Assembly: GCA_964016885.1 (NCBI GenBank)
Contig: OZ024741.1
Location: forward strand, 348,936,001-349,000,000
Source: Eledone cirrhosa
Taxonomy: Eukaryota
Direction: 5' to 3'
DNA length: 64,000 nucleotides
Shown: piece by piece, positions 1 to 54,770 of the stretch
How the letters are laid out: the number at the start of each line of letters is the position of its first letter
How positions within the stretch are numbered: position 1 is the first letter of the stretch
Translations under genes and position numbers: made by a program
The notes under the pieces: model-generated
Databases searched by the model: none
Told to the model about the DNA's origin: nothing
The model's input: only the letters and a program-made list of their open reading frames with translations

Positions 1-692
1 CACCGTACGATACAAGTACTTATACCTCGTATAAGGGTCCCTGTATTTCCGTCCCACCTAGTTTATTTTTATTATTATTATTTATTTTTTTATTCTTCAT
101 TATATATTTTTTTTTATTTATTTATCTATTCTTTTATTCACTTATTTGTTTATTTATTTATTCATGTATTTCTTTAGCCTAGCAATAGCGAGAGACTTAA
201 GTCTTAGTAACCAGACTTTGCTTATTTTTTTCTCTCTCAGTACCTTTTATAGTTTTACCCTACATTGTTCTACTTACCGTTTCGACCTCTTCCCCCTCCC
301 CCTCCCCAGTATCCTCTTTGACCTCACGCCCAGCTGTAGCCGGCACTACCAACGCATGAATGGGTCTACTCCACCCCCTCTCCACTTTTTCTCCTACCGG
401 CAGGTTTAGCTACCCTTTCCCACACCAATTTGCCATCACAGATTTACTACTAACTTGTGATGTGACCAATCCTGGTGAGTATCTCTTTGACCATATATGG
501 AATAACCCCTTGATAAGCTCGGCTATTTAAATACCAGAATAAATTTTCATTAAGTCCAGAATTAGCCGTCGAAACGGCTTGAGCTCAGCCGTCGGGGTCT
601 TACTTGTTCCTATTACCCACTCTACTACCCTAAGTATTGAGTACTTTGGTGCGTTGTGGTCCACCTGGTTCTTCACCACATTTCCTTCGTTA
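1..692 (+). mobile_element. Penelope-like pseudo-LTR, family A (cut by window start)
   Basis: Aligns by eye to 41566-42162 (+) and 38642-39595 (-); contains a hammerhead motif; ends in (TA)n. Confidence 0.85.
505..598 (+). ncRNA. Type-I hammerhead ribozyme, U3-A8 core variant
   Basis: Stem I ACCCC/GGGGU; core UUGAUAA (510-516); stem II CGGCUA/UAGCCG; GAAA 571-574; stem III CGGCU/AGCCG around palindromic UGAGCUCA; GUC cleavage triplet. Confidence 0.75.
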
Positions 693-739
693 TATATATA
701 TATATATATATATATATATATATATATATATATATATAA

Positions 740-990
740 TATAAAGTTAAATAAAAGTCAAATGATTAAAATTTAGCTTCGTTTATTACTGCTATATATA
801 TTTCAGTGACAGCCATCTTTGGCTGTGACCTCTTCAGGCAGTTTGAATTAGTATGGTATAGACAAGTACATATGTTGTTTAGGTGTATGATATTGTCAAT
901 ACTCTGATATGCCCAGTTCCTTGCTGGGTTGTTAATTCACTGGGGAACTGGAGTCATATGTTGGTATACAACCAACATAAACTCAAAATC
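740..990 (-). mobile_element. Penelope pLTR fragment, family B
   Basis: Near-identical to ~46885-47105; flanked by (TA)n; contains HHR. Confidence 0.75.
788..842 (-). ncRNA. Minimal type-I hammerhead ribozyme
   Basis: Reverse strand: ACUGC CUGAAGA GGUCACAGCCA-aaga-UGGCUGUCACU GAAA UAUAUA UA GCAGU. Confidence 0.75.
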
Positions 991-1020
991 TATATATATA
1001 TATATATATATATATATATA

Positions 1021-1561
1021 TCATAAAACATGTCTATAGAATCACCAGATAAAATATATACCATTTCCTCTCCCAATTAGTATAATTAACCATATAAAAA
1101 ATCGAATACACCAGGCTATAAGAATAAGGCTTCTATGAAGAAATCTCCAACAAATAACCGAAACTAGCCCTTCGCGTCGGCTGCGACGGAATATTTATCG
1201 AATATTTCGACAGCGTAATCGCCCAGATATACAGTCAATTAAACAGAATTAGGTGTAAAATAAACTAGGAGAAAAGAGAATACATTTATTTAATATAGAT
1301 GTATTCTCTTTTCTCCTAGTTTATTTTACACCTATCTATTTAATTGACTGTATATCTGGGCGATTACGCTGTCGAAATATTCGATAAATATTCCGTCGCA
1401 GCCGACGCGAAGGGCTAGTTTCGGTTATTTGTTGGAGATTTCTTCATAGAAGCCTTATACTTATAGCCTGGTCTATTCGATTTTTTATATGGTTGATCAT
1501 GCTAATTGGAAGAGGAAATGGTATATATTTTATCTGGTGATTCTATAGACATGTTTTATGA
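1021..1561. repeat. ~540-bp near-perfect palindrome (fold-back) between (TA)n tracts
   Basis: 1021-1285 is the reverse complement of ~1299-1561 with few mismatches. Confidence 0.9.
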
Positions 1562-1829
1562 TATATAGCTCTGATTATTTAATTTATTAACTTTTCATTG
1601 AGCCACAAAGTGACCCGTTGCAAAACACGCATATGTATATATGTATATATATATATATTTATATATATATGTAGACCTTTATATGTATATATATATATAT
1701 GTATGTATATAATTGTGACAGACGCAGATACTTAAGTTTCGTTGGGTTTAATACCAACTTATTCAGTCTGCCATATGGTACACTGAATGAGTTGGTGTTA
1801 AATATATATACTAAGTATGTTGAAAACGT

Positions 1830-51119: not shown

Positions 51120-51155
51120 TCTTCTGACGAAGGACTAGCGTCCGAAACGTTAAGA
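51120..51155 (+). ncRNA. Minimal type-I hammerhead in diverged fold-back (~50600-51240)
   Basis: UCUU CUGACGA AGGAC-uagc-GUCC GAAA CG UU AAGA. Confidence 0.75.
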
Positions 51156-51410
51156 CCCTCTTCCTGCTATATCAAGCGTTAACCTAATATATCACTTCCA
51201 TATACTGTACCGATTGTGTTGTTATTTCTGTTTACCTTTTACATACATATATATATATGTATATATATATATATATATATATATATATATATATATATAT
51301 ATATATATATATATATATATACATGTGTGTCTGTGTGTGTGTGTGTGTGTGTGTGTGTGTGTGTGTGTGTGTGTGTGTACAGAAATGTCAAAATCAATAT
51401 TCCAGCTTAC

Positions 51411-51557
51411 CTTAATATCGTTGAAGATAACTTTACCGCCACGTTTGTTGATGTACGTTAATAGGTTGTCGGCATGGGTTCGTTCTTCAAGAGATTCTCT
51501 GGCAAAGAACTTGGTAAATCCGGGCAAAGCAATATCACTTCGCCCGAAAAAATATGA
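51411..51557 (-). CDS. Ferritin (yolk/secreted-ferritin-like) internal exon
   Basis: 147 nt, TTTCACAG acceptor, GTAAGC donor; SYFFGRSDIALPGFTKFFARESLEERTHADNLLTYINKRGGKVIFNDIK; same boundaries as the second coding exon of animal H-ferritins. Confidence 0.92.
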
Positions 51558-54029
51558 CTGTGAAATGAAAAGAGTAACGTTTAATATGGAATATATTGCG
51601 ATAACGGCACACTCTTCTGTGAAATAATCAGTCATTTATTCGTCACTTATGTGGAATATATTAAATATTAATATCGTTGGAAGAATCGGTATAGTGATAG
51701 ACGAAAATGTATTGTAGGATTTTCTACCGAAGTCAGCTCACCTTTTCCTGTTGAATTAAGAGGACGATGGTTTGAATAGTGACAATGTTCGGGCACTGTG
51801 GCTCTGACCAAGAGCATCAAGATCTGTAATAGCTCAGTAACACACTTGTGCAACTATCAATAAAAAATAAATCTACAGCCCAAATGAATGTTTCTCCTGT
51901 CACCTTAAAAGAAGTAAATGCATTTCTTGGTTGTGTTTTGAATCAGCCATATGTCAAAGACTGACTAACAATCATAACAGTTTTAGCAAGTCATTCATCT
52001 ACCAACTAGAGATACTCGATGCTGAAACCCTCCAACATAATTTAAGATATCTAGTGATTTAAGATAATTTAAGATATCTAGTGATACTCTGTCGATTAAA
52101 ACAAATTCAAAAACCTCGGAGTATATACATACATTGAGATTTATATATTCATATATGTATAGTCGATAGGGTAAATACCACGTTGGTATCTGACACGACA
52201 TAAGCCACGCCACATATTCTTTAGTCTGAACTAATAAATTATCCAGATAATGGAAAACGTTGATACGGAAACCTCGATATGTGGCAGAAGGCACACAGTT
52301 ATAAACTTTGTTTTCTTTTTATTTTATGGAAAAACTCTACGAGAACGCTCTCTGCTGTTTCAATATTAACTGTTCATTTTGCACTTGCTTTCACTGGTTA
52401 TTTAATTATGCAGTCTTAGACAGTGGTATACGAATCAAATGTCACTATATTTCAATGATTTAGAAATGTTTAATCACCTTATCGTATTCATGTTATTGTT
52501 TTTTTATGTGACCCTATCATCTAAATAGCTGAAGCAATCATCATGCACGCACGCATGTATATATTTGTGTTTGTGAACGATTATATCCATGACTATATGA
52601 GTATCTTTCTAAACATGTATATTTGTGTTCGCCTTATTTTGTAATTATTTGACGTATTAACAATAGACAAAGCTATATCCCATCTATCCCATCTATCCCA
52701 TCTATATAAATAGCAAAAATTGGATTAATATTTTGATTTAAAAACTTGGTTTTAGATGGTTTCTTATTCTTCACAGAAACCTTTTTCTCTAAAGGTTATT
52801 GCATAAATCCTCAGTAACATAACATAATGATCCAGCAAATAAAGATGAAACATATGGATAGAATAGCGGTAGGTTTCGACAGAGTTTTCCACAAATGCCT
52901 ACATATGCAAATCATTTAACTTCCACATCTATATATGGTTTACCGTCCGAAATAACTGTCTGAACTTATGTCTGCATGATTTGGTGTGTAATCTTCTACA
53001 AATATATCTTTGTATTGAAATGTATAAATCTATTCAATATTAGAAATATTTTTTTTTCATATTCATCCCAGGGATCTTTTCCCTACGGAGGGGATAGCGC
53101 ATTGTTGCAGCCACAATATCATGCCGGATAAGGAGGTATCATGGTCTTGGGTTCCATAACTTCTACAAATATATGACATAGTTCACCAAAAGGTGAATTT
53201 TATGGTTTCACATTCTCCATTGTGCAACTGATATTTTCAAGCTCCCTCATGCCGTTTGTTTGTAAAATCATACACGTCTGAATATGGGGTGGCTGGAGAA
53301 TGAGTTTTATCTTAATATTACCAACATTCTCAACATCCCAGTTGCTGGCTCATTGCTTAATTTTATAGTAAAGAGTCAAGAGAAAGTTTATCTGTTTTCC
53401 TCACCCGTTGTATTAACATGCATCTAAATTTTAATCGGGTCTTGCAGATTTTTATTTTCTCCTGTGAACTGATAATCTGAAATGTCCAATTGTGGCACAA
53501 GGCTGGAAATGTCGGGGAAAGGAAAGCCGATTAAATCGACCCCAGTACATGATGGATGTTTATTTTTATCGATCCCGGAAAGTTAAATCATTGACCTCGG
53601 CATGATTTGAACTCAAAACGCAAAGAAGAGGAACAATATAACTTCTGACGCTTTAGCGCCTCAATCAACCGTTCTTGGAATATCACTAATAATAATGAGT
53701 ATAAAGCTAAAAATTAATTTTCAATTGTAGATATGCAGACTCATCACTGACCAATATATGTCTTCTTTCTATCTAAATGTTTTACAACATTGACGGCAAA
53801 AGGGCAGCTAATATCCTGAACACTGCAATTTATTTTTTAAACTACTGTCCTAAAACACTAATATCAAGCCAGATATAGCTAAATGTGGCAGTTGTATTGC
53901 TTTCAGGTTCTGTAACTATATTTTATTATGATCAGTTGTTTTCTATTTCCTATTTTATACCGAATTCGAATCGCTATCATATATATATATATATATATAT
54001 ATATATATATATATATATATATATATAAT

Positions 54030-54770
54030 AAAATATGGAGAAGGAGCACACGAGTTGGAATATATATATATATATATATATATATATATATATATATATA
54101 TATATATATATATATATATATATACATGTATATGAAAATAGGGAGAAAAAGACGATTATTAGGAAGAAAAATGTATTTTTTCCCTTTTATTTATGTTTAA
54201 AACAAAATATTTTACTTTGTGTGGAGTGTTAAGGTATTAGTTAATTTATTTATTAATTAACAATGGCATTTATTTATTTATATATTTAATAATTGTCTAT
54301 TACCGGTTTCAGCATTTTATGCATTATCAAAGGGGGAATTTATATTGGTGTAAAATGTTGGTGATGTTGATCATGTTAAGGAAACGGGGAAGAAAGAATG
54401 TTATTTACAAACAAGGTTTTTGAAGTGAAAAGAAAAATGAAAAAAAAGGGGGTAATGTGGAACATGATTAGGTAATGGGAAAGAAAAAATAATATTATTT
54501 ACAGGCATAGTTCTTGAAGATAAGCAGTTCAAAATCTGTTATTATGGCAAGAAAGCTTAGTTGATCCATGTTAGAGGCAATTATTAAATATATAAATAAA
54601 TAAATAAATAAATGCCATTGTTAAATAATAAATAAATTAACTACCTTAACACTTAAAAAGGTAAAATATTTTGTTTTAAATATTTTCTAACCCAGAAAAA
54701 AGAGAAAAAAATAAAAGGGAAAAAAAAAATTTTTCTTCCTAATAATCGTCTTTTTCTTCCTATTTTCATA
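54030..54770. mobile_element. Fold-back pLTR with U3-A8 HHR (~54297-54334, minus)
   Basis: Reverse strand UUGAUAA UGCA-uaaaa-UGCU GAAA CCGG UA; stem I weak; arms match 25845-26170. Confidence 0.65.

Follow-up and report, generated by a model that had tools for sequence, protein, structure and literature searches.

Active hammerhead ribozymes hold a tertiary Watson-Crick pair between C3 and G8 of the core, and the question raised by the stretch studied here is what it means when whole families of hammerheads carry another pair. The window (64,000 nt of the Eledone cirrhosa genome, positions 348,936,001 to 349,000,000 of contig OZ024741.1, assembly GCA_964016885.1) contains motifs of Penelope-like elements (PLEs) in which CUGANGA is replaced by UUGANAA, that is, C3-G8 by U3-A8. 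The first-pass annotation listed five of them in four element types, here families A, B, C and D, and read the double change as selection for cleavage. Analysis showed that they are genuine type I hammerhead motifs in PLE terminal repeats, and that in family A the 3-8 pair is favoured yet not required for amplification. The U3-A8 pair is already known; amplification to ~2,000 copies with a mismatched 3-8 pair is novel. The motifs are probably best explained by weak, assisted cleavage, under which selection would be loose enough for a mismatched 3-8 pair to pass for a time.

All five motifs were found where the annotation had placed them and with the cores it gave (Table 1), and U4, G5, A6 and A9, G12, A13 and A14, the A15.1-U16.1 pair and H17 follow in order in 5/5. 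In the family A motif at 505..598 helix I has 5 bp, helix II consists of G10.1-C11.1, an internal loop and 6 bp, and helix III has 6 bp. The three helices are present in family A and, as a dimer, in family B, whose helix I has 3 bp in the window copy (4 bp in 18/32 and 3 bp in 11/32 copies). The weak stem I noted earlier for C and D was borne out (2 bp in 20/25 family C copies and 1-2 bp in 9/9 family D copies), and because it is seen across the family copies it is a family trait, not decay. A palindromic ACCGGU replaces the closed helix III in B, C and D, and helix III of family A is near-palindromic. The consensi of A, B and C have G10.1-C11.1 without an insertion between 9 and 10.1, while D has U·U at 10.1/11.1, as also seen in the commonest C3-G8 family of a 1 Mb genome sample. 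A scan on Rfam listed no hammerhead in its 150 best rows out of 190. The five motifs are solo or in inverted pairs, not in tandem arrays, and do not qualify as retrozymes.

The proposed Penelope origin was confirmed by open reading frames (ORFs) for reverse transcriptase (RT) and GIY-YIG, which are linked to the motifs of all four families in the same sense (loci L086, L292, L293 and L298 for A; L033 and L075 for B; L324 and L314 for C; L077 for D). Family A hammerheads lie ~280 nt upstream and 0.6-1.2 kb downstream of this ORF, and those of B, C and D 0.4-1.4 kb downstream of theirs. The family A protein contains DKT (HSDKTG), RLRWR (RWR, not RWK) and CxCX5C (CNCPDRSIC), and the copies end in (TA)n; these features (DKT, CxCX5C, RWK-like motif, (TA)n) point to a Hydra-type PLE, with homologues at 35-52% that are nearly all unnamed. 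The linker of B, C and D is CX4CxxC, within the CX2-5CxxC of the Neptune clade, and the label Neptune-type is taken from this linker. In the RT tree without outside relatives B, C and D fall in one group (RTs mutually 49-56% identical), in agreement with the suggested relationship of the three short types, and these families keep UUGANAA...GAAACCGGUA while their helix II sequences differ yet still pair. Analysis on Pfam found RVT_1 and GIY-YIG on the family B protein. Neither the family A protein nor five PLE and long interspersed nuclear element (LINE) fragments of the window had a match, so that PLE identity rests there on motifs, architecture and homologue domains. The closest relatives are 53-76% identical; for the family B RT, the best homologues that bear a name come from octopods, at 76% and 59%.

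Pattern searches covered 3.0 Gb of genome, with reversed patterns as control. The short-class pattern gave 21,484 matches against 283 in the control. Matches of the form core...GAAACCGGUA comprised 20,511 U3-A8, 146 C3·A8, 133 U3·G8 and 14 C3-G8 (sum 20,804), and their reversed controls 19, 12, 11 and 4, respectively (sum 46). From these counts U3-A8 is the consensus and is fixed in the short class, the remainder being ~0.7% decay plus small G8 families. Covariation within families was uninformative in the short class (14 C3-G8 matches against 4 controls, with ~1 expected), and several of the 14 belong to other small G8 families. When families E and F (below) and the U3-A8 members of family A are added, the genome contains ~25,000 U3-A8 motifs, a total in which inverted pairs are counted twice. 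Because the U3-A8 core falls outside the pattern, standard CUGANGA searches miss this class, as had been predicted, and undercount hammerheads in such genomes. The class has nevertheless not been overlooked, since a dedicated U3-A8 descriptor was published and run on PLEs in 2014, with ~1,300 matches in Schistosoma mansoni (PMC4209133).

An unbiased search of 1 Mb with positions 3 and 8 free produced 69 matches, compared with 5 for the reversed pattern and 3-6 per shuffle. By 3-8 pair these were 52 C-G, 12 U-A, 3 C·A, 1 G-C, 1 C·C and 0 U·G, so a Watson-Crick pair is kept in 65/69. The matches formed 31 clusters, of which 19 were C-G and 7 U-A, and 4/7 of the latter look spurious. The descriptor demands a helix I of 3 bp and therefore misses C and D. 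The majority 3-8 state in the genome is C3-G8.

Family A gave a different picture. Its patterns matched 5,684 A8 and 60 G8 motifs in the genome against 2 controls, distributed as 3,669 U3-A8, 2,015 C3·A8, 46 U3·G8 and 14 C3-G8. The Watson-Crick 3-8 pair is missing in 2,061/5,744 motifs, the window motif with its core at 29078 among them, and C3·A8 makes up 35%, with CUGAGAA in 94 of the first 100 C3·A8 motifs listed. Alignment of 96 copies gave six subfamilies and 10 copies outside them. By median divergence the subfamilies are S1 (UUGAUAA, 2.8%), S2 (UUGAGAA, 4.0%), S3 (CUGAGAA, 5.2%), S4 (mixed C3/U3 with G7, 5.5%), S6 (UUGAAGA, 7.5%) and S5 (UUGAAAA/UUGACAA, heterogeneous, 8.7%). Mismatched subfamilies own long-ORF copies, and the near-full-ORF elements L292 and L293 have CUGAGAA at both ends; the master element itself was therefore mismatched. 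In a tree built without the core from 50/85 copies (8 were too short and 27 young copies were thinned), S1 is nested in S2 and both lie inside a CUGAGAA grade, and the ORF tree gives the same picture at lower support. The core likely went from U3-A8 to C3·A8 and back to U3-A8, an order that is likely but not proven because the root of the tree is not fixed. The C3-G8 motifs were considered as a revertant family and this was rejected: they amount to ~0.7% of C3 motifs, and those read are point mutants scattered in existing subfamilies, mostly CUGAGAA.

Among the six subfamily consensi, 4/41 structured columns vary as against 43/92 loop and flank columns (Fisher p 2.5e-5; the count excludes the 5' strand of helix II, which the search pattern fixes), and three of the four varying structured columns are positions 3, 7 and 8. 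The claim of selection is thus supported in family A for the fold, in line with the Watson-Crick majority of the unbiased search, and these sequence comparisons do not support strict selection on the 3-8 pair, given the C3·A8 motifs. Independent variation of positions 3 and 8 around a CUGANGA consensus had been named as evidence that would speak against such selection; family A does vary in this way, through C3·A8 and the small U3·G8 subfamily, and its consensus is not CUGANGA. Because one family reached ~2,000 copies with a mismatched pair, efficient self-cutting was likely not essential for family A. The series offers near-isogenic natural variants at core positions 3, 7 and 8 with known copy numbers, and lets one ask directly whether cutting by PLE hammerheads is needed for element spread.

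The alternative that survives best, doubtful as it is, keeps selection for cleavage strict and has C3·A8 rescued by a slip in register, with C3 pairing to G7 in CUGAGAA, N7 effectively deleted and a spare A at 9.1. The G7 carried by 94 of the first 100 C3·A8 motifs listed would fit, as would the trees, which place the rise of C3 among subfamilies with G7 and the only loss of G7 in the youngest U3 subfamily; all else stays conserved in CUGAGAA subfamilies, and an extra base at 9.1 is described as common in PLE hammerheads (PMC4209133). However, these are one or two events, so G7 may be a mere linked marker. A scan of 2.0 Mb for a core one base shorter gave, in its 14 largest groups, no new family and only re-reads of known ones, wobble tolerance would still be needed for the U3·G8 subfamily, and a literature search gave no report of a tolerated loss of N7. 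In its fullest form, an unlikely one, this alternative would make family A a dated natural walk over the catalytic pair (U3-A8 to C3·A8 and back, with a U3·G8 branch), in which the C3-G7 slip kept CUGAGAA active as a hammerhead whose core is shortened by one base, and an autonomous retrotransposon spread with it to ~2,000 copies.

For the favoured explanation, weak and assisted cleavage, the prediction is that U3-A8 motifs cut themselves slowly and with help from a dimer partner or a protein, the fold being selected and the 3-8 pair only loosely so. Families B, C and D would pair through the palindromic ACCGGU to build helix III in dimers, and their dimer cofolds do form the ACCGGU duplex. Family A has a full helix III and probably needs folding help because a competing hairpin hides GAAA; its hammerhead fold lies 1.4-3.8 kcal/mol above the minimum-energy fold. 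Occasional cleavage would free the element RNA from read-through or tandem transcripts, and insertion would use mostly uncut RNA, so that weak or mismatched cores could survive in an active master. Family A copies run uncut through the predicted site, past which 47/87 end at 10-24 nt and 33/87 at 85-109 nt. In published work the C3-G8 tertiary pair belongs to the active core (PMC3884650), the proposed general acid is the 2'-OH of G8 (PMC6155905), and U3-A8 is reported active in vitro (PMC3088659). Minimal PLE hammerheads are described as cutting weakly and as dimers (PMC4209133), and the hammerhead of an anole PLE as cutting only with protein, with mutants at 3/8 leaving in vitro insertion unblocked (PMC11167929).

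Several results weigh against this explanation. Folding z-scores of six window motifs were not significant (-1.5 to +0.7), and the helix I of C and D is very short. In a pairwise mutational scan the 3-8 pair was rescued only by G3-C8, with other doubles low (PMC9901934), which may leave U3-A8 with next to no activity in certain contexts. When outside relatives are added to the RT tree, the monophyly of B, C and D is not resolved and the tree takes a minimum of 3 changes. The link between a further U3-A8 family, F, and an ORF is one of position and clade.

Some of these points would also suit a rather improbable reading, in which U3-A8 motifs no longer cut and are kept for an element protein, for binding or for initiation of reverse transcription. 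The ~2,000 motifs amplified with a mismatched core, the uncut inserted copies, the missing rescue of U3-A8 in that one scan (PMC9901934) and the near absence of helix I in C and D all agree with it. Against it, the purely catalytic bases (UGA-A, GAAA, NUH) are invariant across subfamilies and across RTs that are ~50% identical, a Watson-Crick 3-8 pair dominates across families, and the family A lineage likely went back to U3-A8. Young tandem arrays of 318 and ~590 bp units also hold U3-A8 in each unit, in the manner of retrozymes, and the in vitro activity reported for this pair (PMC3088659) is a further point against a dead motif.

The view that four families made the double change independently was overstated. 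Placing all U3-A8 lineages in one RT clade was rejected (approximately unbiased test, p-AU 5e-47), which implies two or more origins or else a transfer of the module. U3-A8 is fixed per lineage and likely arose at least twice in the genome, with one origin probably common to B, C and D. In the RT tree without outside relatives these three cluster with one unlabelled element. Relatives were sought in 80 metagenome loci, which gave 16 motifs, a few of them weak or antisense. L355 is Neptune-type, 45-47% identical to B and D, and repeats the ACCGGU and U·U design, here with C3-G8; the metagenome locus L357 carries C3-G8 too. L404 (U3-A8) and L412 (C3-G8) have near-identical hammerheads and RTs that are 72% identical. 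Because of L355, L357 and the L404/L412 pair, the swap between U3-A8 and C3-G8 is seen to recur.

A single origin of U3-A8, with the terminal-repeat module passed between PLE clades, is very improbable. In its favour, nesting and chimerism are frequent among PLE copies here, but A and F (long loop II, full helix III, GUC) have no sequence in common with B, C and D (ACCGGU, GUA), designs like those of B, C and D occur with G8 in this genome and elsewhere, and the swap between L404 and L412 is a separate one. Chance matches in AT-rich, repeat-rich DNA are excluded by the genome counts (20,511 matches against 19 controls) and by the fixed place of the motifs in PLE terminal repeats in ORF sense, although the loose descriptor yields a few AT-rich false matches, such as the spurious U-A clusters.

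Two small families with G8 were also recorded. Family J (L065, L072, L077:1524(-), L088:4847(+)) is small and old, with a D-like U·U helix II, ACCGGU and G8, and position 3 is C in 2 and U in 2 of its 4 copies; it is possibly a C3-G8 sister of D. Family G (L031, L070, L332-L351; 127 pattern matches) has the ACCGGU helix III of B, C and D and reads G-C-A-U-G-A-A-G-A, with a base added between helix I and U4, G8, and A10.1-U11.1; its core has either C3 and an A insertion or A3·G8 as a mismatch. An ORF was looked for in families G and J and not found. The family C copy sample is enriched for G8 by the choice of copies.

Families E (L207-L236) and F (L237-L261) are young, near-identical, retrozyme-like tandem arrays with a U3-A8 hammerhead in each unit. 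Family E gave 306 matches (period 318 bp; U3-A8 in 99 of the first 100 listed) and family F 848 (period ~590 bp; U3-A8 in 98 of the first 100 listed). These arrays are the best candidates for circular RNAs. Like non-LTR (long terminal repeat) retrozymes (PMC7229834; bioRxiv 10.64898/2026.07.22.740005) they are tandem, have short units with one type I hammerhead and no ORF, and are tied to PLE repeats; unlike those their core is U3-A8, and the window motifs are not tandem. A further U3-A8 hammerhead at L323:48(+) has 6-bp helices I and II, a long loop II and GUC, and was seen in a single copy.

Among known systems, the Cercyon hammerheads of Schistosoma mansoni, as presented in PMC4209133, are likewise of type I in PLE terminal repeats, with U3-A8, a short helix I, a palindromic small helix III and predicted action as dimers, and they occur as solo copies and close opposite-strand pairs in many consensus families per genome. 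They differ in number (~1,300 motifs, against ~25,000 here in two RT clades and with tandem arrays too), and family A departs from them in its full 6-bp helix III and long loop II. The 9/10.1 insertion and G10.1-C11.1 are given there as typical of PLE hammerheads, with canonical-like variants occurring too; A, B and C have no insertion at 9.1. Amplified mismatched-core subfamilies such as those of family A are not described in the text consulted of that source. An amplified C3·A8 subfamily turned up in none of the literature searches; Lunse 2017 and the supplements of Cervera 2014 may already treat cores with a mismatch or insertion, CUGAGAA or CAUGAAGA among them. The natural core variants of Perreault 2011 (PMC3088659) include U3-A8 covariation and the U10.1·U11.1 start of helix II seen in D; they are scattered examples, and the section consulted does not name C3·A8 as a variant.

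Family A shares DKT, the CxCX5C linker, the RWK-like motif and (TA)n insertion with the Hydra-clade PLEs of Craig 2021 (PMC8557442), which bear a C-terminal endonuclease (EN+). The Hydra elements of that source have canonical hammerheads, whereas family A has U3-A8, C3·A8 or U3·G8. The Poseidon PLE of Anolis carolinensis (Frangieh 2024, PMC11167929) also has a terminal-repeat hammerhead, copies that span the cut site and two copy ends; it belongs to another clade, is canonical C3-G8, and has a tail given as 30-40 bp, against ~80 nt in family A.

Table 1. Hammerhead motifs and family A element parts in the window (UTR, untranslated region)
Feature	Position	Strand	Core	Remarks
Family A hammerhead, type I	505..598	+	UUGAUAA (U3-A8)	youngest subfamily; U3 at 510; predicted cut after C593 (GUC); inverted partner end of Hydra-type PLE, ORF just left of window
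PLE-type hammerhead, canonical	793-837	-	C3-G8	
Family B short hammerhead	3157..3192	-	UUGAAAA	helix II GCAG/CUGC; palindromic helix III ACCGGU; GUA site; in 3' UTR of Neptune-type PLE
Family B, second copy	3283..3312	+		decayed; makes inverted pair spanning 3091-3365
PLE-type hammerhead, canonical	3430-3476	-	C3-G8	
PLE-type hammerhead, canonical	3504-3549	+	C3-G8	
Hammerhead, canonical	14454..14516 (motif 14462-14508)	+	C3-G8	precedes the ORF of another Hydra-type PLE (14737-16669) by ~276 nt
Family A hammerhead, mismatched	29073..29168	+	CUGAGAA (C3·A8)	subfamily of ~2,000 motifs; absent from first-pass annotation
PLE-type hammerhead, canonical	36703-36737	-	C3-G8	
Family A hammerhead	38654..38748	-	UUGACAA (U3-A8)	fold as in 505..598; predicted cut after C38659; inverted terminal repeat of PLE at 38.6-42.2 kb
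Family A (Hydra-type PLE) RT + GIY-YIG ORF	39724..41168	+		5'-truncated, frameshifted
Family A terminal repeat, 3' direct copy	41374..42162	+		meets N gap 42163-42362 before its hammerhead
PLE-type hammerhead, canonical	46936-46980	-	C3-G8	
Family C short hammerhead	49787..49828	-	UUGAUAA	helix I 2 bp; C at 10.1 against G in the family (G10.1 lost)
Family C, second copy	50281..50317	+	GUGAUAA	decayed; in inverted repeat
Family D short hammerhead	54297..54334	-	UUGAUAA	helix I 1 bp; helix II with U·U at 10.1/11.1 followed by 4 bp

The six C3-G8 hammerheads of Table 1 fall in four families and were absent from the first-pass annotation, as were the decayed second copies of B and C. At 1729-1766 (-) lies a motif of hammerhead shape that has CUGAAUA (C3·U8) as its core and good pairing in helices I-III. 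Inside the family A 3' UTR, a 35-bp tandem repeat of 10 copies occupies 39004-39459, and its length varies from one repeat of the element to the other. Short pieces and fold-backs of family A at 2851-2887, 7750-7823 and 28470-28528 start near an AGCCGU-CGAA-ACGGCU hairpin, which is possibly a preferred stop or template-switch point of reverse transcription. The stretches 48544-49143 (+), 56822-59805 (+) and 33849-34487 (-) are presumably fragments resembling Tc1/mariner transposase and non-LTR retrotransposon ORFs; on Pfam, 48544-49143 (+) gave a weak helix-turn-helix only. A ferritin-like exon at 51222-51635 (-) (Pfam Ferritin, E 3.7e-8) is probably part of a host gene.

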